Assembly (NCBI GenBank): GCA_036172245.1
Contig: JAYWIR010000064.1
Location: forward strand, 434,001 to 498,000
Length of the DNA stretch: 64,000 nucleotides
Source of the DNA: Raillietiella orientalis
Taxonomy: Eukaryota
Direction: 5' to 3'
The notes beneath the pieces were generated by a model. The model did not search any database, was not told the origin of the DNA, and worked only from the letters and a program-made list of their open reading frames with translations. The position numbers and the translations under genes were made by a program. Positions 8,050 through 61,778 of this stretch are shown piece by piece. Position 1 is the first letter of the stretch; each line of letters opens with the position of its first letter.

Positions 8050-8930
8050 CATTTGCTTCTTCCTAAAGATCGTTCGCGGCCAACAAGGAAGGCGTATTTT
8101 GACGAGTGTCTTTGCGACCATTCTTCAAGTATGTGGCTGGTTGCGAAGGACCTCCACCTTTCCTGGCACTCAGCCACGGAAGTTTGTCCCAATGTGGGCT
8201 TCAGCGTCTGCAGATCACTGTGGAGAAGGAGAATGCCTGGATTTCCTTCCCACATACGAATTGTCGTTTCTGGTTACCGGAAATAGTTCATAACAAGGGA
8301 TAAATATGAGGAGAATCTGCGGCGTAATTGCGATTTTCCTCCTACGTTCGTTGCTCGTTAAGAGAGGTTCTAGAGTGGCTCCGGACAGAACTGACAGAAG
8401 GCAGCTCCATTGCCATAACACTGTCCTCTCTACGCGAACATAATGAGACTAACCAGCTGTTAAGGCATGAATTACCTGCAGCATCGCAGGAAAAAGACGA
8501 TTCAGTGGGTGGACTGCGCGTTATTTTGTCGATCATGGGCCCTTCCCAAAGCACTTCTCCACTGGGCAGATCTCTGTAGACTCAGGTCCATGCCATGATA
8601 CCTCGAAGACAGACTCAGGGCTGCGAGCGTTCTTCGCAGCAGGCGACAAAGCACTGTGCACTCTTGCAGAGGAAAGGCTTGTGGAGATCGGCCGCGATCG
8701 CCAGAGCACCATAATCTGGACCGTTGCCCAAACAATATTCAATTCGTACATCCATAAGGATATATATAATAGAACAATGATAACATTTTGGAAACTTTTG
8801 CAGGATATAAGGGCGGGATCGAGAAAAACAATCTTGTCTACTAGTGGCACTTCAACGCTCTCAGCTTCAGAGAAACAGACGTCCTTTTTGGTCGATGCCA
8901 TACGATCCAGTGAAATAATTTCCTGTTAAA
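8050..8930 (+). mobile_element. Decayed non-LTR retrotransposon ORF2 C-terminal region (L1/Tx1-like)
   Basis: Frameshifted pieces VCPNVGFSVCRSLW...FPSHIR, HCPLY../EHNETNQ (degenerate zf-RVT) and TIIWTVAQTIFNSY...FWKLLQD. Confidence 0.35.
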
Positions 8931-9589
8931 TCTGCGTTTTAACGAAGAATAATTTTGAAATACAGCTTCTTTAGCGGCTGCTGCAGAAAACATTCGTAAT
9001 AAGTTCCATTTTGCTGTTTCCCTGAAAAGGTTGGTAGAGTAGATCAAGCCTCGTATTCGTGTGTGTAGCATGTTCGGGAGAGCGTCCATCCCGGAAAAGA
9101 GAACCATGAATGGCTAACAAGAATCAGCTGTCGATCGTACGCTCAACAGCATACGGTCTTCGTCTCTCGACGACGATCGGAACAGACGATTTCGGTGCAA
9201 ATTACCGGATAACAAGGGAAGCAGCCTCGTCAACTGGTTTGCTTGTTGAAACATTGGTTTCAGAATTGCTAAGGGAACGACATCCAAAGTAAAGTGAATC
9301 CCTGTTTACAGAATTCAATTCAGAGCAAAAGAACGGAGACATTTGCACGTGGAAATCACGACGGCAATGCATTTGGGAAGAAAACATGCACATCACATGA
9401 TCACGGCTTAGAATGGCATTTCCGCTTCTCTTCCTTTTCAAGAATGCATAGGAAGAGGTCCAAGATTCAAATCGAAACGAAGCCTCCAGCTTGCCAGAAG
9501 AATCCGCTTGGGAGTGCCATTCGGATGACGAATCCCAAAGCATGGTCCAGGCAGATTAACAGGAAACAAACAGCGTTCTTTTGCACCTT

Positions 9590-10470
9590 TCGAAAGTTCG
9601 ATCTCCTGCCCTCAGGGCAAACAATGACAGTAGCCAACCGGTAGGATGGGAGTTCTGCAACACTGCAGGAGTCAAAAAACTGCTGAGCGGCTACAAAGCG
9701 AGCGTGTTGGTGGATGCTGCCACTCCTCGTCACCGGGAAAAGGGACTCCTCCGGAGTGAACTTCTTAGTGTACCCCCCGAAGAACTCGTGGTCCCTTCTC
9801 TGCGTGGACACCTCTGTGTTACCGCTTCGCTGGAAACAGGGTGTTCTGCTATTCCTGCACTGGGGCTTCCAGTGCAGTCAGCGCAGGCACCTGGTTTCCG
9901 GGGGAGTTGCCTCCCCAAACTGTCTCAGCAGCGGGGCGATTGAGTCGCTCTCGCATTTTCTATTGGAATGCTGTGACTTCCAGATGTTATGGCGGAGACT
10001 TGCTTCGGCACTTCGTCGTCCCCAGGGCACTGCCACCAGTTTGCTGCGGCTCTTCTTCACCAAGGACGGACTGAAGAAAGGCACTGTGATCGCAACAATC
10101 TGTTGCATCCGCGCCATCGTGACGGCCTGTCGTAAGCTCGAAGGAAGATCGCAGCGAAAAGACGCCACCAGCATAGCAGCAAACCTTATGAAGGCAGCTG
10201 CATGGTGGCCTCATCTGCCCAGAAAAGTCGCCAGGGAAGTCACCATCGTCAAGCGGCGCTTCTAGAAGAAGAGGAACGTTTTAAGCCAAAGGTCCCAGTT
10301 CCCACCATTCCTTGTTTTTTTTTGTTTGTTTTGTGTCCCTTCCCTCCGTTCCCTTCTTTTTTCCAAGGCGGCCTGCGTGCCAATGGTCATCCCAGTTGAA
10401 CTTTTTGTATGGGCGTATCTTGTTTCTTGGAGGGATGCATATCCCTTCAGACTTGTGGTTTTGTAATAGA
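9590..10470 (+). mobile_element. 5'-truncated non-LTR retrotransposon (L1/Tx1-like): ORF2 C-terminus with zf-RVT, plus pyrimidine-rich 3'UTR
   Basis: ORF 9714-10265 contains LPLRWKQ...FLHW...SPNCLSSGAIESLSHFLLECCDFQMLW, a degenerate CxxC-x-E-xx-H-xxx-C...W pattern. Homologous to 33557-33870. Confidence 0.7.
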
Positions 10471-12103: not shown

Positions 12104-13955
12104 CTTTCGTATTGGGGAAGAGTTGTGGCGAAATCGAGATTCATTGCTCGAATGACGCTTAGTTCATTAGGATTAAATCTGTATGTAGGGATATGTAACG
12201 CGATTCCATCCCATGCGTATTAAGGAAAGCAAGAATCCGGATACACATGTGTGTGTATGTGTGTGTGTTCTCGGAGATGCAAGATAACAAAAAGAGCTAT
12301 GAGCGTAGGGATGGCTTCTACCGGTTTTCCTACTAGGCTAGGATTGGTTTGTCAAATCTGGCATAGGTGGGACACACTTTCCTATGGCTCTTGAGGAATA
12401 ATGTTCCCGTCCTCAAGAAGCGAGTGTGAGGTGGGAACGAATGTAAGGGATTTTGGGATAGGGAAAGTGGGGAAAACTTGGAAATGTTTCGACGAGACGC
12501 TTTCTTAGCAGAATAGAAGATCAGGTCTTTTCGTCTACTAGGAAACGGCTGCAGAGTTTGCACTTGCTGCTCAGGCAACATAATAATCAGCTTTTTAATT
12601 GGTAGCTAAGATGGAAGAGTGTATTAGGCAAAGCTTCCTTGTTGGAACGCACACTACCGGCGTACGGTGTTTGCTTTTTTCCTTCCGAAGGGATCTGCAT
12701 TGATTCCTTTTTCAAGACTGCCGACAAGATGCTCACTGATGGCAGCTGAATCGATGAGAGTGAAACGTTGGATGGTGATACAGGTGATGGCATGATGAAA
12801 GGGGGTATGCCTCCTTATCGATATGCCAGGATGATGTCCAGGTGTTGAAGAATTCTATTTCATCTCCACAATGCTTCTCGTATTAAGGGAGGAGGGAGGA
12901 GGATCATTGAGGTATTTGGGGGGTGTAACGATGAGGGTAAAGGAAATGCATGCAAAGATATTCAGCATTTCGAAAAATGCAAACACATCCTTCAATGATC
13001 GGCAGAATATTAAGCACGCGTGGAATTGGAAAACCCTGAATGAGAATCCAACAGAAGGATCCAAAACAAATGGAAGTAGAAAAGTAGAGGACTTGTAATG
13101 AGCAACGATCAACAGAACACGTTTCTTTCCTAGGGAATATTATCAATATTAACTCTGTCAAGCAATGGCTTCCGTTTTAACTTAGCAACAAGCAAAGCAA
13201 AGCAAACCAAACCAAAAAAAGCATCGATTTCATGCACACGCTGGAGATTTCAGAAAACTGTCAGCGGTAATTTAGGAATACCATTTGGGCAATAAGGCGG
13301 AGAACCCATTAACCTGCCGGATCACCTCTAGGCTTATTCTTGCAAATCGGAAAATACACATTGTGATACTTTAGAATGCCGAAAGCAAAAAGCCGAAGTA
13401 CATTGCCGAATGAGCAGCAAAATAAACTTCAGAAAACAGAATTTCATCATCTCTCTTAGTTGTCCATCTTTGTGATTTCAGCGGGATTCCACATGGGACG
13501 AACATATAACACACAGCATTCAATATCTTCACGCCGTCTGAAATAGAGGGGGGAGGGGGGGGGAGAGAGAGAGAGAGAGAATTTCCATCCGAATGAGAAT
13601 GAATACAGAAAAGAGGATGTCGTGTTCCTATTTCAAAGTACACATGCATTTCTTTCAAGCATGTATATGATGAATAAAAAAAATGACCACAAAAGGTGGT
13701 TGAAGGAAAATACCCTTCCCAAACAAGCGTACTAAAAATGAACTAAGTAAGAATATTTATTATAAAAGACATATTCTGGATAGGAAATATGTAGGATAAT
13801 GTAATGGATGTAATCAGATGTGATTGTGGGAAGAGGGCGGAAGGAGGAATGGGAAGATGGAGTTCATGATGACTACTTTATTATATCATGAATAGCAGTG
13901 TTGGATGTTGAAGTTTCTAGAATTTTGTTCATTCTTAGATTACTTTTCTGAAATA

Positions 13956-13989
13956 AATTTCCTATCCTAAATAATTTCCTATCCTAAAT
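13956..13989. repeat. 17-bp direct tandem duplication
   Basis: AATTTCCTATCCTAAAT x2 (13956-13972, 13973-13989), just upstream of the structured element. Confidence 0.9.
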
Positions 13990-14039
13990 AATGTTACGCT
14001 ACCTGTGTTAAGTGAATGATTGAGCAAATGCATAGGGTC

Positions 14040-14870
14040 TGTAGGGAGAACCCACGAGGAACGAATCTGTAAATATTTTGACTTAGGTTTGTAGCCAGCA
14101 AGTCTGAACTCTTTACTAGCGGTGTTCTTCTCTCGGAACCCGCGTCGGAGGCCGTGTGGTTACGGTGGTCTCCTTTCGCGTGGCACCATGCGTCGTGGGT
14201 TCGAATACTCCGAAAGGAATCGACTCACTGCTTCGTGGGTTCAGAGTTCACCCCACAAGATGATGCCTACATTCATCCGGGTGCAACACTGGTAGCGGTT
14301 AAAACCGGATGCACCCGATGAGGGCCGGGACAAATGGGAGTCGACCTCCGGGTCCTTCCAGGAATCACGGAGTGGGGAATCACCCCTCTGGTTGTGAAGG
14401 AGAGAACCCCCTATTCCGGGAGGACCCTCTGCGTCGCACTGATGACGTAGGTGTGTCGCCACCACCTCTCCAGGGAGTGCAGAGACGCGAACGGATTCCT
14501 TCGGAGAAGCTGCGTCCTTCTGAATTTCGAAGCGTCACCTTCTGGGTTCTCTTCAGAGGAGGAAAAACAGGATCGGATCCCTTCCGGGTTCCTTTCAGAG
14601 AAGAAAGAATGGAGCGGACTCCTCCAAGAGTCTCTTCGGAGAGAATAAGGAAAGAGATTCCCTATTGGATTCCCCTTCGGAGACAACCAGGGTGGGGGTG
14701 ATTTCCGGGGATCCCTTCCCAGGTGTGTGAGGAACGGACTCCGAGTCCTTCCTGGATTCATAAGGCGGACCCCTCCCGGGGTACCTCCTGTCTTGAAGAA
14801 TTACCCACCCTCGGGTGGCGTTGGACCGTGTCAAAGAACTGTGAAGACAGAAAAGAAGGATTTCCATCTT
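14040..14870 (+). ncRNA. Unidentified highly structured RNA-like element
   Basis: At least a dozen consecutive stems with plus-strand G-U wobbles, a GAAA tetraloop (14209-14218) and a C(UUCG)G tetraloop (14631-14642). No credible ORF. Boundaries approximate. Confidence 0.5.
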
Positions 14871-17800
14871 TCAGATCTCATTTCTAATAGGTTGAAATAC
14901 TTAAAAGTGAATACCCTTAATTGTTTCAGTTCTTAACTTCAATTATTTCTAGGGTAGATCATCCTCCTCGTTTATAGTTCCTTATTTTTGAAAAAAAGTC
15001 TGAATTCCGGAATGTTGATTTTTCAAGCTGAAAAAGGAGTTATCCTTCCCCCTCTTCTCTGGGGCACAAGTGACTGGCATTCTATTCCATGAGTGTTATA
15101 GCAGATATTCATCAGGAATATCCAGTATCTTACTTCGGTTTCGTATCCATCTGAATGTTTTGCTGCATTTTTTGCAGAGTAATGTTTCATAGCCCTCTTC
15201 ATGTTTCATGTAAAGTATTGACACCGAAGTCATGCTGCTGCATTTCCTCCGTCACCCGATGCACTCCTCGTGTCTCATTACACCACATACTGTCCTCAGT
15301 TCTCGTTTCCATTTCCTAAATGCATCTGTGGTCTCTCAGCATATGATGATGGTTTGTCAATTACTTATCTCATGTGACACTGATCCAGATAAATTGAAAA
15401 ACTGCGAGTGAGATTTAGCTGAAAGTTTTAATCATCCCCGGAATGAATCCGTGATAGCTTACAGAACACCAATGATAAAGTAGCAGTGCGAGGGTTGTAA
15501 TAACTGCATTCAACATTCAAAACAGTGAATTAATTGCAAAGAAAAAGTCTACAGTTTCCAAAAGGGTCTGGGCATAGAGATGCAACCGAGGTTACGTCGA
15601 AAATATAAATTAATACAAGCCCTGCTTCTTCTGATGTTTTTCCGGCCACCTGATTACCGATTCGGATCTTCCAATACGATACTAGTTACGCAAATATTTA
15701 TAAATGAGATATCTAGAAACCAAAATGAGTAGTAGTATCTTTCTTGCGGAGGCGACGGTGATACGAGACACAATCTGTACACAATCTGAGCCTGGTCTGG
15801 TCATCAAATCGCCTTGTGTACAAAGAGCTTTTCAGACTTGTTTTCTTGTGTACTCTTTATCTGCCTCGGTCAGTCTCTTAGCAATGAGTAATTGAATTGT
15901 CAAAAGACTTAGCCAACACAACAAAATCAAAAGAAATGAGCTTGAAGAACTCTGTGCTGCCATAGCATCAGGAAGCAAGATCCTTCATAGTTACAGCTTC
16001 ATTACTTTTCCTTCAGTAGAAATGTTCTGATGGGAGCACGCATTTCATCTCACCCAGCTTGAAAAGCTGCAATTAAGTGTTGATGATAATTAGTTTTAAT
16101 CCAACCCTATGTCCACCTAAACGTGAAGGAAGCTCTGAATATATTAGCAAATAAATGGTTGCATATCATAATTGTTTAAATATACACAGTCGCAGATATC
16201 TGTATTCCCATGCAGACTCCTGATTAAGGTGCTCATAGTAAATTTTCTTCCAAAGGTTGAAGCCCTCTAGCAATTCGTGCTAGCAGATCTCCAAGTGCAT
16301 GCCTCAGTCCCGGAACTCATTCAAAGAATTATCGTTACAACGTTAACATCTTTCCTATTCATGAGGTACAAATTATACTTTTCGAATGAATCTGAAAATC
16401 ACAATCTGAAATGCAGTTTAAAAAAATTGCCTAATTCTGATCTCCAATCCTTATAGACTTTATCTAGAATTTTATTTTTTTCCTACCAGCAGCCGCATGT
16501 TTACAAATCTTGCAATTCCTCAGACATCAATCACATTTATGTGTTTTTTTCTCTACTCATATGTTAACATTAATATGGAAATATTAAAGGATAACACATC
16601 ACAAACAGCTTCAAAAGAGCAATTCCCTTATAATAAAAGAGATTTGTAGCATTGCTTGAGGGACACATTAGGTCGTTCCAAGTGGCTTTAGTCCGCACTC
16701 GCCCTACGCTCCATTTCATTGCCCATTTTCTACCACCTGGATAAACATGCAGATTTTTCAGATAAACCATAGATTAAAAATCATGTTCGATTATATGTCA
16801 GAATAACTTTTGTTCTTGCTTGATGAAATGGATAATAAAATGCACGTTCTTCTTAATTACAATATTGTCTTCTGGACGAGCAAAAACTGTGTGGATTTAG
16901 AAAAGTTTTATTTTATTCTTACAATAAAAGAGAATATCTGAGTCTGCAAAAAGAGATTACCAGTTGAATGATTCAGGGAAAATCAAAGCTGACTAGCTAA
17001 GTTTTCCCTACATCCGACAAGCGGAGGGGTGAATTTATTTGCATTCTTTTAGACAATTGAAATTTAAACAGACTCCATAAAAATTTCATTATCCTGCACA
17101 CTATACCAGTCGCATTTTCTTTAGTGGTGGATAGGGAATCATTTCAACTGTCTGGAGCGGAATCGTTGATTCTCTTTGAAATGCGTCGATACGTTCAGGC
17201 TGGTATCCTTCCGCAATTCCTAATCCCGATTCCTTTTTGTACAAGTCTCTTGAGGATTTCTACGGCCGGTATTGCTTGCTGGGGTACTTGAACCTTCTCT
17301 CTTCTCATTATAGCTGCTGTGATGAAGAGGGCAAGTGTGGTTCGAACCATTGGATTGTACAGGGGCACGTTTCCGTTCCCCTGAAACAAGCCCGCCAGAA
17401 TCTCCATCTTCCTGCTTCTGTGCAGGCCGGTCACCGCCTTCACCGCCTGCCAATCAGGTCGAAGCGTAGGGCAAATGAACAAGTGAAGCTGCTCTTCTTC
17501 GGCTACATAAGCCTTGCAGAGTACATCTTGCATGTCCAGTGTCGAAGTTTCAGGAGTCACTCAGGATCCTTCTATGATAGAACAATAAATAAGAGGTCCT
17601 CCAGGGTGCTCGGGGGAAGGTCAGCCCTCCAGAGTGCATCTCCAACCGCTTGCACGTTTGCATGTGAGCATCCATAGAGACTTAAAGATGCATCGAGGGC
17701 ATCATCATCTTGGTATTCCTTCAAGATTTCTTCTTTTATGTTGGCTTTGGTCATCAGCAGCCATGCCTGGTGTGGCAGCTGTTTCCACAGCTCCCGCGTT

Positions 17801-18188
17801 CTATGGCTGAACTTTCATTTCATTCCTTTGCAAAATCGAAACGGTCATGCTTGGTGACAATCGCCACTGGTGGCCAACTGTTCGCGATTTTCCATTCTCA
17901 ACCTTGGCCTCTGGTGTGTTCAAATAGAAGTTTCCCCTGGAACAAGGATAAAGTAGAGTATCACCAGAACTAGTTCTTCCCAAATTTCTCTACTCCTAGG
18001 CACGATCTTGAATTGATGAAGTCTCACGAGTGCCTGTTTCCTCTTCCAAGTGGGATCTGTGTTCACCCACTCTCCAGTGGCGCATCAGTCAGACACCAGG
18101 CCTCTAGAGTTCAGCAACTTCGAGTAGGCTCTTTGCACTGCAAAAGTTTACTCGTCCCATTTCTCGGTGGGCTGCAGAAGTTGCCGTG

Positions 18189-18831
18189 TGTTACGACTTA
18201 TCTAACCTTATATCAGAGCGACGGGCGATTTGCATTCAATGATTATTATATTCAATTTAGCTCTCTTAAATAAATTTACCATTAAATCCTATTTCAATAT
18301 AAAATTACATGCATATATCCAAACCTAAAATATTGTAGCTCACTAAATATTCTTTTTCATGATGCATCTTGATTAAAACTTGCAATTACTCTGTATTAAG
18401 AAAATTAATTACTCCTAAATAATCAAATCAAGGGTATATAAACACCAAAAAAGTAATTTCCTCGCGGATTATCATTTATTAAGCAAACTCCCCTAATAAT
18501 CCTCATTACCACCAATTCATATAAGTCTTCCTCCCTACTTTTTAATATCCACTATTCATATTAGAGTGCCTAATTCTATTTTATGAATGATAGCTTATTA
18601 AAAATTAATATTTATACATAAAACCAAAAATTTTTATTTCAAATTAATAAAATATTAATATTGATTTAACTCTTACGTTTAACCGCTACTGCTGGCACGC
18701 ATATTAGCAAAATTTTAAATAATTACTAATTCAATTTTTTTATGATTAAAATTAAATAGTACATATTTTATTTTCAAAATTTATATATACCTCATTATTT
18801 CAATTAATATTAAATCACATGTAAAAATTAT
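18189..18831 (-). rRNA. rrnS: Mitochondrial 12S rRNA (rrnS) pseudogene, NUMT, 3'-truncated
   Basis: Conserved 12S blocks as reverse complement: TGTTACGACTTATCT (18189), AGAGCGACGGGCGAT, and AACCGCTACTGCTGGCACG (~18681-18699). Extremely AT-rich. Confidence 0.93.
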
Positions 18832-18893
18832 TACTAACAGCTTCAAGCATAATTAAATCCTAAATTTAATACATACATTTCTGTCATATTAGT
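18832..18893 (-). tRNA. trnL1: Mitochondrial tRNA-Leu(UAG) within the NUMT
   Basis: ACTAATA TG ACA GAAATGTA TGT A TTAAA TTTAGGA TTTAA TTAT GCT TGA AGC TGTTAGT A: 7-bp acceptor stem, 5-bp anticodon stem, anticodon TAG (18860-18862), short T arm. Confidence 0.88.
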
Positions 18894-18904
18894 TTTTAAT
18901 TTAA

Positions 18905-18958
18905 ACAAGAAATTTTCCTTTTTGGTGTAAACAAAATATTCTATTAAACTACTTCTCG
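18905..18958 (-). tRNA. trnV: Mitochondrial tRNA-Val(UAC), T-armless, within the NUMT
   Basis: CGAGAAG TA GTTT AATA GAAT A TTTTG TTTACAC CAAAA AGGAAAA TTTCTTG T: anticodon TAC (18927-18929), TV-replacement loop instead of a T arm, 54 nt. Confidence 0.85.
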
Positions 18959-20250
18959 CTTAACTATCTCTCTCTGCACTCTTAGAGCACTCTAACAACA
19001 TTCCATTCCCACCTTCCTCTCGAGGAGGCACAAAAGTTTGAGCTTATCCCCAGGCTTGAATTCTTTCCATAGTATTTTTCCTTGGATTTTTTCAATTTCC
19101 GCATGATTCTTCTTGTCCAAGGACGGCTCCATAGAACACCTTAGGAAGTAGGACGCTACTCCATAAGGTGGCCCTCTGCTTCATGTTGAAGTCGACTTGA
19201 ATGAACTTCGTCTCCTGAATTTTCCCTAGGATTTCTTTCCATACCTTTTGCTAAGAGGAAGCGTCGTCAAGCTGGATACCCAGGTACTTCACTTGTGCCG
19301 CTAGAAATCCTTCCTCCATTAACGTGGAGAGAACCAGGATTCCGATAGGCAGCAGGTAGCTTTTCTGGGCACTGATTTTCAAACCCAATCCCGTTTTCAT
19401 TCATTCGACTACATAGCTGAATTTTACCCCTGTAAAATGAATTTTCGTGGCAAATCCAAAGCACAGGATTCCTCTCTCCCTCCCTCTCTATGTTTACTTC
19501 TTCACTAATCATAGACTGACACTGGTAACCTCGCCCACATCAACTCAGTTTTCCTCAAAATAGATAAATTGATAACTATTCGGTTGAGAGTCTTCTAGAA
19601 ATCACCATATATTGTGAAGTCTGCTATTCACTTTGCGTCAGAATCATCAAAAAATTGATCTATCAAATTTATAGGAACGAAAGAGATGGAAGATGTAATG
19701 CTGGTCTACCCCAAATTTTTGGAATAATACCCCTAATTTTTGGTTCTAAAATGGGTGCTTCTCTACGTTGCTTTTGAAAAATTTTTCTTTGACTGACGTT
19801 TATTAGAATATGGTTTCACTATTCACTCAAATGACTTGAGGTGATGGAATTGTCAAGATGTGAAAGTTCCTGTTGACATTGTCTCCAAATCAGTATTTGA
19901 AAAAAATTGAGTCTGATTACTATGTAATTTACAGTGGGATAAAAAATGAGGTATCCATGTTTTTAATAGCAAAATTTTTTCAAACAAGATCAAGGTTGGG
20001 ATTGTTGATTCTTTCCAGACTTTGAAAATCGTTTTTAGATTCTTTATCGTGAAATTCATAAAGTGGATAGTTTATTAATGCTTTAATTGTCATTTTTTCA
20101 ATTTCCTTAATTGCATACAGGTATTATAGCTTTTTAGCCTATTGTCTAAGATGGATGTGCAATCAAACAGACATTAATAGAAATGTGTAAACAAATATCA
20201 CTGGACAAAAATTGCAACCTGCTCGTTGTACTGATAGTCCTGCTGTGTAA

Positions 20251-53700: not shown

Positions 53701-54658
53701 TGCTAAGCGTTCCTGCATTGCAAGTATTATCAAAGCACATGTTTTCTATGTAGAGTAACCTGCTCTACATCGAAATTTGAGCACTTCTTTAGAAAGAAGG
53801 GGTGGCATTGGTTCTAAAATGTGGAAGAGGATTTAGATCTACCATTCAAAATATCCTGGCATCAGAGGCAATAGCCATTTTTTTCTTTGAAACTGGGTAA
53901 AAATATTGATATGCGGTTCAAATACACTTTTGTTGAGGAAAGATGCTGCACTGAGTTGCTGAGGATCGACCATCCTGAGTGGACTGACGCTACTCTCGGA
54001 CTAGGAAACGTTTCAAGAGAAACCTTTCCTAGTTGCAGGAGAACAATTCGCAAATGATGACTTTATGCCAGTCAAAAAGTCATTTTTGAACGAATGGTAA
54101 TTAGAACATTTGGTAGGCGAGCTCTGTTAGACAGGTACAAGGGAAAAAATTTCCAATTCTTAACTCGTGCTGATAAATGCAAAAACCAAAGTTTGTTGGA
54201 CACGAAAGATGCGAGGATCGCGGTGTTGAATTCCCAAAATTATCTTGGTATCGTCGTTGTATCCGTGTCTACTTGAATAACGGTAAATTTTGAAATTGAT
54301 TTTCCACTGCTGCTTGCCAACGAGTTCCCAAGTCTGATAAAGCACCTGGTCCTTATATAACAGGATAGACGAGGATTTTTTTTACTGAATACGACAGAAA
54401 TCATTCCAAAGTTCAGAATTTTCAACATTCCAAAAAGTTGAATAATCTTGAACATTTCCGTGCCTCCTTAACTAAACACGGATGATACGGAAGAACATGC
54501 TGCGAGTTGCGCTTTATTTACAACAGACAAAAACACTCTCTAGTGAAACGGCTGCTACTGATTGTGATTTCCAAAGTGTTACCAGAATCCGAGTGCGTTG
54601 GTGCCACCATCCTTAGTTGTAAAACGCGAAAAACAAATCGTTGTTGCTAGGACTGGAT

Positions 54659-54762
54659 GGTTGCCGTCGGACCTTCTCTTCGGAGGGTTGCCATCGGACC
54701 TTCTCTTCGGAGGGTTGCCGTCGGACCTTCTCTTCGGAGGGTTGCCGTCGGACCTTCTCTTC
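54659..54762. repeat. 27-bp minisatellite, ~3.85 copies
   Basis: GGTTGCCGTCGGACCTTCTCTTCGGAG at 54659, 54686 (one G>A), 54713, and a partial copy at 54740. Confidence 0.95.
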
Positions 54763-59080: not shown

Positions 59081-61690
59081 GACTGCCAATTTTGAAGATG
59101 AAACAATGGAATCGATTGAATTCCGAATTTGGTTTGATAGGATCAGCAAAATGTCAGAGCCTCTACTCTGAGTCTGCAGACCTGAAAAATGGATACTGCG
59201 TGTGAAAAATGAAAAACGGATATTTCGCACACATTACATATGGTTGCGACATATATCGCATATCATTACGATAAGCTTACAGCAAGGGCAGGCTCGAAGT
59301 CTGTCCGAAAGCACAGGGCAGTCAGATGATTTTGCGACCCTTTGTGCATTTCGTAATGTTTTGCTTACTTTTTCTTTCCCGTGCTAAATAAAATATCTGA
59401 CGGTGCGTTCGCAGTGATTTTTTATCTCCTATCTGAGAAAACAAAATGAATCATTGCAGACCTCTCATTCCATAGCAAGAGAATGCTAAAGAAAAGAGAA
59501 AAAAAACTGCTTTGCAAGAAATGGCTCCTTGAGGAACAGTTCCTATGCAATTTCCCGTGTAATTAGAAACACTAGGCAATCAGTGAGATGGCACGAAGAG
59601 ATTCTGCTCTCTCTGGTGATTCATTTTGCCTCTTTTTTTAGATTCGACTTTTTCCGGTTTCCCTCTTTCCACACCGTTTTTTCGTTTCGTTTTTTTTTTT
59701 TTTTTTTTTCCTCCTAAGGAATTTATCTGAAGCTCTGAATGAAATATTTCCATGACTGAGGAATTTCGTGTGGATAGGGAGACACGGATGGAAAGAGGAA
59801 ACCATCGGCTCAGAATACGTGTGTGGAAGAAAATATTAACAACGAGATGGACAGATAAAAAAGCCTGGAAAGTGTAATTTTTCCTCTGTGGTTTCGTTTA
59901 TCGAAACGACGGAAACAAAAGAAGGGTCAGCGAATGAGCGTTAGTCAGTGAAAGTCCTGGAAAAAAGTGCCATCGATAAGCGAGCATTTCCAACCCTTCA
60001 GCGAATATTCGCCGCCTTGCATGCATGCATCACTTCAGGGATGCCTCGTGCCTTTTTTTTTTTTTTTTTTTTTCCCCCTTTTTTTCTTTTCATGCCGAAA
60101 ACTGTGGTCGTCATTTCTTCCAACTCGAACGGAGGGGCCACCGGGCAGGAGAACTCTCTGCCCGGAGATGGTCAGGGAAGTCGACTTTCGCGTTTCCCCG
60201 GCGACGGTCGCTTCCCTCGCGTCTTCCCGTGCTTGTCGACGGACAGACCGCTTCGTCGACAGGCTCCTCCTTAATGCACGCCGACAGACCGAAGTAGAGC
60301 AAACATCGGGCGGCAAGGGAAGACAACCACCACCGGGGGGGGGGAATGTACACGGAGTCGCCGCCGGCCGAGATGCTTGGATTGTACGCGCGGCAAGTAC
60401 GCACTTTGCGCCACCGTACTTGCTTGCGGTAACGGCCGGGCAAAAATCGCGTCACGTGATTTTTTTTTTTTTAACAAGATTCACTTGGAGAGACACACAG
60501 GACGCTGCAGATCAATAGACCGTCAGATGGGCTCGTAATCGATGGTTATCTTTATTTCAGAATGGCACACATGGAAACGCCGCAAGCCCTGCCGTCACAG
60601 TCAACCCCATCGAAACGCTGCACCGAGCTCTTTGTGCTCGGGAAGAACGAACCCGACTTCACTATTTTTACTGCGAGGGAACGGGTTGCCGGGATGTTCA
60701 CCTGCCTGAAGCCTGAAAAGTCCCCCCCCCCCCCCGGAGATCACACACCTCTACGAGTGCAGGAAAGCAAGGAAGGGCCACCCCCCCCCGCCCCTTCCCC
60801 CCGATTTTTCAGACGGAACTTTTCGAGGACGAGGAGGAGGAGGAGGAGGAGGTTGCCGCCTCGTAACGTGCTAGCAAACGTGTAGGCACAGAACATGTAA
60901 AGTGTTGTACTTTTTGCCTTGCGAGGGTCAACGACCTCCACACTTCCCGCTAGTACACGGTTGCGGAATAGGGAAGCATATCGTTTTCTCAGTGTATTTT
61001 TGTAATTTGGATATTCCACGTGACCGGCGACCGTCTGGCCATACACGAGAAGAGGAGGAGTCGATTCCTTCTTGCATTGCGCAACAGAGCTCAGCTGTAC
61101 GCTTGCAGGAAGTTACACGTAGATTTTTGCCTACAATTGCAGATGTACCATATGCAGTGTGCACAAAAATGGTCGTCTGCATGCCTATGCTCGGCAACGG
61201 CGACCCGGAGGGAGGAGAGAGAGACATCCGAGGATCTGCGAAACCGTCGGGAGATGCCATCTACGCTAAAGTATGCGATGTTTTTCACCTGCTTCCGATT
61301 CACTCCACGCTTTGGAAATTGGTTGCTATGTAAAGTGAATGACACTGACGTCATCATCATATGATCGGAGTTCTGAGAATGGAATTTGGCTCTATATCAA
61401 GTCTAATAGTTCCAGCTGATCTGCAGTGCGGTGTGGTTGTCGGTTCATATTTCCAAATGGAGTTCCTCGCTTCCCACCGACGAGCAGGAACGAAGCTGTG
61501 TGGAAAAAGATTGGGGATTTTTCCCGAAGGGAAGGACGATAAGCAGCATTTATATTATCTACAGTTGTGTTATTTGTTGCAGCTACGGAACGGCATGCAG
61601 AGGGGCCTGCGGTGCAGAACTTTGCAAAAAGTAAGTGGAACAAATGCTACTCGGTTACTTTAATGCCGTGGTTTTTTTTTTTTATTCTTT

Positions 61691-61778
61691 GCTCCACTGC
61701 TTCGCGTGCTGCTTCGGTGCTTATGTCTGTGTTATATAATCAGTCAGGTACCTGAAGTAGCGCGCGGAGCTTTTGAGT
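61691..61778 (+). ncRNA. mir-275: pre-miR-275; mature 3p TCAGGTACCTGAAGTAGCGCGCG at 61744-61766
   Basis: Matches the known arthropod mature miR-275 sequence. The 5' arm CGCGTGCTGCTTCGGTGCTT pairs with it. Confidence 0.97.

Follow-up and report, generated by a model that had tools for sequence, protein, structure and literature searches.

A tRNA-derived SINE family with three classes of 3′ ends and a possible self-priming route of retroposition

The SINE Copy in the Window

The window, by which we mean the whole analysed stretch of 64,000 nucleotides, contains at 14138-14868 (plus strand) what is almost certainly a single decayed copy of a multicopy, tRNA-headed, non-coding SINE of subfamily A. 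This assignment is based on homologue boundaries, flank repeats and identity to the subfamily A consensus (93.1%). The initial annotation had taken 14040-14870 as one element and had proposed a copy-number search in the genome, which showed that the block is a dispersed repeat. With 14040-14870 as query, most homologous copies start at about query position 100 and end at about position 829. Therefore, the real unit is 14138-14868, and 14040-14137 is unrelated flank outside the SINE that is shared by no other copy.

The head of the copy contains an A-box-like segment (14150-14165, plus strand), which in an alignment with host tRNA-Ser(GCT) resembles the tRNA-Ser A box, and the B-box-like segment GGGTTCGAATAC (14197-14208, plus strand). 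A repeat search identified a second, diverged copy of the B-box region at 14229-14242 (plus strand), corresponding to the second TCGTGGGTTC of the initial annotation. The SINE body carries degenerate hairpin modules of about 40 nt (GGAG-C-GGA-YCCC type; 14399-14798, plus strand) that were recognized by alignment to the consensus and by motif matches at 14399, 14488, 14570, 14611, 14731 and 14762. A purine/A-rich linker with the conserved foot GGATTTCCATC (14858-14868) follows at 14843-14868 (plus strand). Here, at the foot of the terminal hairpin, the window copy stops, without hairpin or poly(A) and without TSD (best flank repeat score 4). The first T run downstream (14985-14989, plus strand) would be a chance Pol III stop, were the window copy ever transcribed.

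The element is non-coding: its copies differ in many small indels and the two longest frames over the SINE (132 and 129 aa) had no Pfam match. ARAGORN found no tRNA in the window, and inspection by eye for the known motifs of HDV-like, hammerhead or twister folds found none. The head pattern of the SINE had no match in metagenome contigs and none in viral contigs. An Rfam comparison, also proposed before, gave no family match for the block, with one sub-threshold IRE match in the region, and none for five loci with complete or other-subfamily copies. Among the earlier interpretations, that of a non-autonomous retro-RNA was of the correct type. Hundreds of neutrally decaying copies, a tRNA-like head, relatives with poly(A) and TSD, and the lack of an Rfam match give no support to a functional ncRNA dedicated to this locus (telomerase RNA-, 7SK- or IRES-like), nor to a viroid-like one. 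As a locus, the window copy is an unremarkable, dead repeat.

Several other features were observed in the window. Broken pieces of the dominant APE+RT LINE family of the genome lie at 17180-19421 (minus strand) and are 47-63% identical to the L201 frame. Frames at about 8400-10300 (plus strand) resemble a decayed second LINE, with a cysteine/histidine motif near 9900-10000; the three frames tested here had no Pfam match. A mir-275 precursor at 61690-61778 (plus strand) scores above the Rfam gathering score and is the only Rfam match in the whole 64-kb window. Short tandem arrays with periods of 17 and 27 are present at 13951-13992 and 54655-54762, respectively.

Folding and Pair Changes

All stems listed in the initial annotation are present in the sequence, and the reported absence of TTTT extends from 14080 to 14984. 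The enclosing stem and the two competing folds, however, depend on arms TGAACTCT (14105-12) and GAACCCACGA (14048-57), which lie in the unshared flank. These pairings are compatible with chance, because an 8-nt complement of the SINE occurs in 347 and a 10-nt complement in 40 of 631 window stretches of 100 nt. The two TCGTGGGTTC copies, for both of which 14048-57 had been named as an alternative partner, are explained by the duplicated B-box region.

Dense folding under selection had also been suggested. The z-scores are indeed below zero on both strands, but the window copy folds barely better than its shuffles. Relative to dinucleotide shuffles, z was -2.39 (plus) and -1.90 (minus) for 14040-14870, -1.54 (plus) and -2.09 (minus) for 14139-14868, and -0.98 and -2.09 for the latter when pairs were limited to 200 nt. 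Consensus sequences of the family reached -4.5 to -5.4 on the plus and -3.4 to -4.5 on the minus strand, and none of 40 shuffles was as good. Since the consensus sequences fold well, the structure is ancestral; as judged from predicted folds, it is a property of the ancestral source RNA and not of the window copy.

The plus-strand G-U bias was previously read as selection. Of the 28 consensus pairs that changed in the window copy, 13 are still, or have become, standard pairs and 15 no longer pair, and across 40 subfamily A copies G>A changes (468) equal C>T changes (446). The bias is therefore a product of counting surviving stems only. CpG-driven decay was not seen in the counts of 247/4419 vs 667/12696. 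Between subfamily consensus sequences, 35/57 changed pairs still pair, compared to 505/1369 private changes (p = 2.6e-4). In the reverse direction pairing was kept in 23/48, and true double changes comprised 6 compensatory and 6 broken cases, these three comparisons not being mutually independent. This argues modestly for constraint on the body fold of the source RNAs, and none is shown for the window locus.

Size and Composition of the SINE Family

An exact 15-mer of the head matched the genome 392 times (control 5) and an exact 14-mer of the tail 309 times (control 0). Combining these counts with a per-base identity of about 93%, we infer roughly 1,000 or more copies. When the genome was searched with its own copy, the best match per non-self locus was 80-87% identical among the 40 scored out of 3338 candidates. 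At least three subfamilies were distinguished: A (40 copies aligned, including the window copy), B (11 copies, about 1.04 kb) and C (20 copies). Over the subfamilies the family ranges from 0.74 to 1.09 kb. None of the sampled copies was more than 96.4% identical to its own consensus.

SINEBase describes SINEs as interspersed elements of <1 kb with at least 100 copies and, for a tRNA origin, at least 60% tRNA identity over at least 60 nt (PMC3531059). The exact head and tail matches exceed this copy number. Subfamily A measures 0.69-0.85 kb up to the foot, below the size limit, and complete subfamily B copies of 0.97-1.09 kb are at or slightly above it. The head is identical to host tRNA-Ser(GCT) in 47/72 columns and to tRNA-Thr(AGT) in 47/71, counted on the alignment; both values lie above the identity threshold and leave the donor ambiguous between Ser and Thr. 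For the first 80 nt, the scores of 47.5 (Thr) and 46.5 (Ser) exceeded those of all 200 shuffles (45 at most), which was not the case for a 125-nt head (best shuffle 53); the host set comprised 45 distinct tRNAs from 50 of 62 listed loci. ARAGORN and Rfam called no tRNA in the SINE head. Judged from sequence, there is little doubt that the family is a tRNA-derived SINE by the SINEBase criteria (PMC3531059), with putative Pol III transcription. Putative Pol III features are the A- and B-like boxes, the lack of internal TTTT in the window copy and a terminal T run of 2-6 in 11/13 complete copies, where scorable.

The number of modules in the body varies between subfamilies. After the A-rich linker comes the conserved foot sequence GGATTTCCATC(A/G)TCC. 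Complete copies continue past it with a hairpin of about 40-45 nt, then a T run and, in most cases, poly(A). Foot and hairpin 5′ arm are near-identical in subfamilies A and B. Poly(A), TSD and 5′-truncated copies are present in the family as signatures of retroposition. The complete subfamily B copies L301 and L342 are 99.1% identical and have different 3′ flanks, which suggests relatively recent activity.

Two further observations concern the copy borders. A T directly precedes the head in 38/80 copies (L269-L348), compared to 24% in flanks (p = 4e-6), possibly as non-templated A added to the cDNA end. Both the pair L287 and L288 and the pair L292 and L293 stop at the same internal position and continue into the same foreign sequence; they are either segmental duplicates or site-specific LINE insertions.

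Three Classes of 3′ Ends

For a census of 3′ ends, we took the first 80 out of 392 head matches and mapped them by script. Complete copies made up 13/80, all of subfamily B, and 9 of these 13 have a TSD. Another 19/80 end in the A-rich 3′ zone and 14/80 at the foot. An adjacent TSD, as in tailless retrocopies that end at single-stranded sites, was found in 12/19 copies of the A-zone class and in 0/14 of the foot class (Fisher p = 1.6e-4). If two distant TSDs in the foot class are included (L332 and L313, itself an inverted case; see below), p is 0.011. The null TSD rate was 0.9%. The remaining 34/80 ends fit none of the three classes; some of these copies belong to other subfamilies and were poorly mapped by the script.

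In an earlier set with a bias towards tails, TSDs occurred in 7/12 complete, 1/34 foot-ended and 0/7 loop-ended copies, the last group ending in the sense arm or loop of the hairpin. Ends in the sense arm or loop without TSD do not result from simple self-priming, and therefore target-primed internal starts without TSD also occur. Tail-biased sampling also gave 57/63 copies that ended at the foot, a share that is an artefact of this sampling, as the head-selected census gave 14/80. The 57 foot ends spread over positions 0 to +5 nt (9, 7, 12, 6, 17 and 6 copies) and peak at the two bases preceding the stem. An L2/CR1-type (CAT)n tail was considered and seems unlikely, as the family continues into the hairpin and extra CAT units were found in 0/82 rows, about 12 of which are spurious flank matches.

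Inverted Hairpins After the Foot

At 15 loci, the hairpin stands in reverse complement behind the foot, nearly in register and in no case with poly(A) (0/15); among those with a head, 1/12 has a TSD. The arms were told apart by a bulge that distinguishes the sense 5′ arm from the reverse-complemented 3′ arm. Genome-wide, a pattern of foot plus inverted 3′ arm had 7 matches (control 0), and a shorter pattern 22 (control 1), of which 13 were inverted hairpins, 3 sense hairpins of other subfamilies, 2 ambiguous and 4 non-elements. The 15 distinct loci combine both patterns and include L038 and L242. The remnants range from 10 nt to the whole hairpin, start with two or three A that correspond to the short U run, and are 0-2 nt off the exact register. 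In the copies inspected by eye, remnants long enough to include loop sequence show the loop type that goes with their body type. The two whole-hairpin remnants (L038 and L242) end at the first base of the hairpin. In L188 a complete copy with hairpin is followed by a short antisense copy in register.

We rejected a flip of the hairpin at the DNA level. An arm-to-arm flip would leave one A, where 7/7 matches of the first pattern carry 2-3, and it would have its end in the T run and retain poly(A) and TSD, contrary to what was seen. Much shorter remnants of the type A2-4G (3-5 nt) follow the foot in 7/39 foot-ended copies, compared to a background of 3.6% (p = 4.5e-4), although this pattern was picked after viewing the rows and one of the seven matches (L132) is the L188 inverted case. 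Most foot-ended copies, the window copy included, have no remnant.

A few copies are joined tail to tail at their feet (L005:2226-2245, L190:1501-1531, L193:1501-1529 and L218:2225-2275). In L005, L190 and L193 a subfamily C copy is joined to an A or B copy. L189 and L192 merely have about 18 nt of the tail duplicated and inverted. The tail-to-tail pattern gave five matches and one control match, and one of the five (L191) is not an element.

A Possible Self-Priming Route

A foot followed by an inverted hairpin without poly(A) is what would remain if reverse transcription had been primed by the 3′ hairpin and the hairpin had not been detached. In the predicted structure the U run lies at the closing end of the terminal stem, so that the 3′ end would pair beside the position where copies end, as in self-primed retrocopies. 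For the 15 inverted loci we consider self-priming quite likely from these sequence features, and foot-ended copies in general probably arose by the hairpin priming reverse transcription of its own RNA. The window copy and the other foot-ended copies without remnant may have taken the same route, by analogy. The wider proposal, to which we give an even chance, is that of a SINE that carries its own primer and uses two routes: poly(A)-dependent, TPRT-type insertion that yields fertile copies, and a snap-back route that yields copies without TSD and terminator, with the RNA primer written inverted at 15 loci.

In this scheme, Pol III would transcribe a complete copy from the internal A and B boxes, leaving a U run behind the hairpin. 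Genomic signatures support ordinary target-primed insertion by an L1/Tx1-like LINE enzyme: starts at an added poly(A) would produce the complete copies with TSD, and starts at internal A tracts the 3′-truncated copies with TSD. Alternatively, the U2-3 end would fold back on the base of its own stem and a reverse transcriptase would extend it from the foot. RNase H would degrade the RNA paired with cDNA and spare the double-stranded hairpin. The second strand would halt at the DNA-RNA junction, leaving a foot-ended copy, or enter the attached hairpin, leaving an inverted remnant. The product would be captured at a DNA break without TSD. Since hairpin and terminator are kept in complete copies only, only these would seed new subfamilies, and the window copy would be a dead end.

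The genome is rich in APE+RT LINEs with long open frames, which are read as L1/Tx1-like from their domain layout. In the search for a partner LINE with the profiles PF00078, PF14529 and PF01541, no LINE end sharing the SINE foot or tail was found in the 50 RT loci examined, of 150 listed and 3358 candidates. The dominant LINE ends right after its long frame with AATAAA and its own conserved short hairpin (L201, L202, L203, L207, L210 and L212), which has no sequence kinship to the SINE hairpin. Human L1 ORF2p copies RNA and DNA templates and, as recently demonstrated in vitro, extends RNA hairpins, including a uridylated Alu-derived one (PMC10830420). Possible cytoplasmic self-priming of Alu is mentioned in a review (PMC11485995).

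The foot ends could also be explained by an internal, target-primed start at the single-stranded foot. Such a start would either take place at DNA breaks without endonuclease or depend on an L2/CR1-like partner and the CATC microrepeat, and the inverted remnants would be rare template jumps onto left-over hairpin RNA. Internal priming of the SINE RNA is common, as seen from the TSDs of the A-zone class (12/19), and the loop-ended copies without TSD and the spread of foot ends over six positions fit this explanation as well. Tailless insertions map to single-stranded regions (PMC5322556) and template jumping by ORF2p is documented (PMC10830420). However, a template jump leaves unexplained the near-exact register and the stop at the first base of the hairpin. 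Extra CAT units were also lacking in the 82 rows, as was a LINE end with the shared foot in the 50 RT loci. Target priming at the foot is the main alternative to self-priming, with a clearly lower but appreciable probability. If the SINE was mobilised by a Penelope-like element (PLE), with reverse transcription starting inside the RNA, foot-ended copies without TSD and a few tail-to-tail junctions would be accounted for, and internal initiation by PLEs has been seen in vitro (PMC11167929). Against it stand a single GIY-YIG match in the genome, which has a stop codon (found with a profile of uncertain sensitivity for PLEs), no hammerhead match in Rfam and no pseudo-LTR; as it also fails to explain the inverted hairpin, we consider it very improbable.

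The remaining explanations concern the RNA rather than its priming. The source could be a host-functional Pol III RNA, of which BC1, 7SK and snaR are examples, with the genomic copies as its retrocopies; this would be compatible with self-priming. The strong consensus folds, the excess of subfamily changes that keep pairing (35/57 vs 505/1369) and the near-identity of foot and hairpin 5′ arm between subfamilies A and B point in this direction. Yet the pairing signal weakens in the reverse direction (23/48) and in double changes (6 vs 6) within comparisons that are not independent, and sampled copies of at most 96.4% identity to the consensus, freely varying module numbers and the lack of an Rfam match make a host function improbable. 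That the window locus is a unique, selected structured ncRNA with two competing folds, which was the main reading of the initial annotation, can draw on the presence of the stems and on the z of -2.39 for the 831-nt block. It is hardly credible for one of hundreds of copies in which 15 of 28 changed pairs are broken and the alternative partners lie in unshared flank.

Self-priming was proposed decades ago for Alu, BC1 and U3. Whether self-primed cDNA gives rise to heritable insertions is difficult to recognise from genomes, in which the primer as a rule leaves no mark. The present SINE family offers a diagnostic footprint, namely foot plus inverted hairpin without poly(A) and TSD, which stands beside ordinary and tailless insertions of the same RNA and can be searched for in further SINE families. 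If self-priming is true, these copies would document, as genomic fossils, a heritable SINE integration that is self-primed and endonuclease-independent.

Comparison With Known Systems

Like tRNA-derived SINEs as defined in SINEBase, the family is interspersed and non-coding, has more than 100 copies, an A/B-box head, a body of obscure origin and subfamilies, and shows poly(A) with TSD (PMC3531059). Unlike typical members, it is 0.74-1.09 kb long, contains repeated hairpin modules and has three 3′-end classes. No conserved central domain could be clearly matched when the family was compared by eye with the Meta, MD and V alignments of bivalves (PMC4824008). In the literature searched, where coverage of pre-2000 and subscription sources is thin, we found no account of this SINE family or of SINE copies that keep an inverted primer.

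The A-zone class resembles tailless retropseudogenes as these are described in PMC5322556: the copies are 5′-intact and 3′-truncated and have A-rich single-stranded ends with TSD. The foot class differs from them in the lack of an adjacent TSD and in the inverted primer remnant that is sometimes present. The tailless process is treated as a therian, L1-related one (plus anole) in PMC5322556, in contrast to the arthropod-like host indicated here by mir-275.

The fixed 3′ hairpin with U run found here also contrasts with the simple-repeat tail of tRNA-derived SINEs. In its putative working the family resembles BC1/ID, for which Shen, Brosius and Deininger reportedly proposed self-priming in 1997. 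ID/BC1 copies are not known to carry the 3′ stem-loop of BC1, and BC1 itself is a single short master gene with priming in an A-rich tract. In the present family, in contrast, several long subfamilies have a common hairpin, priming would occur at the foot of the stem, and the inverted hairpin is retained in copies. Bernstein, Mount and Weiner are said to have attributed 3′-truncated U3 snRNA pseudogenes to self-primed cDNA in 1983. The present copies are likewise 3′-truncated, but they belong to a self-propagating SINE and are not pseudogenes of a housekeeping RNA. The family is a member of the tRNA-derived SINEs, a known kind, that would work like the self-priming proposed for BC1/ID and U3 without belonging to either, and what it adds is its 3′-end signature.
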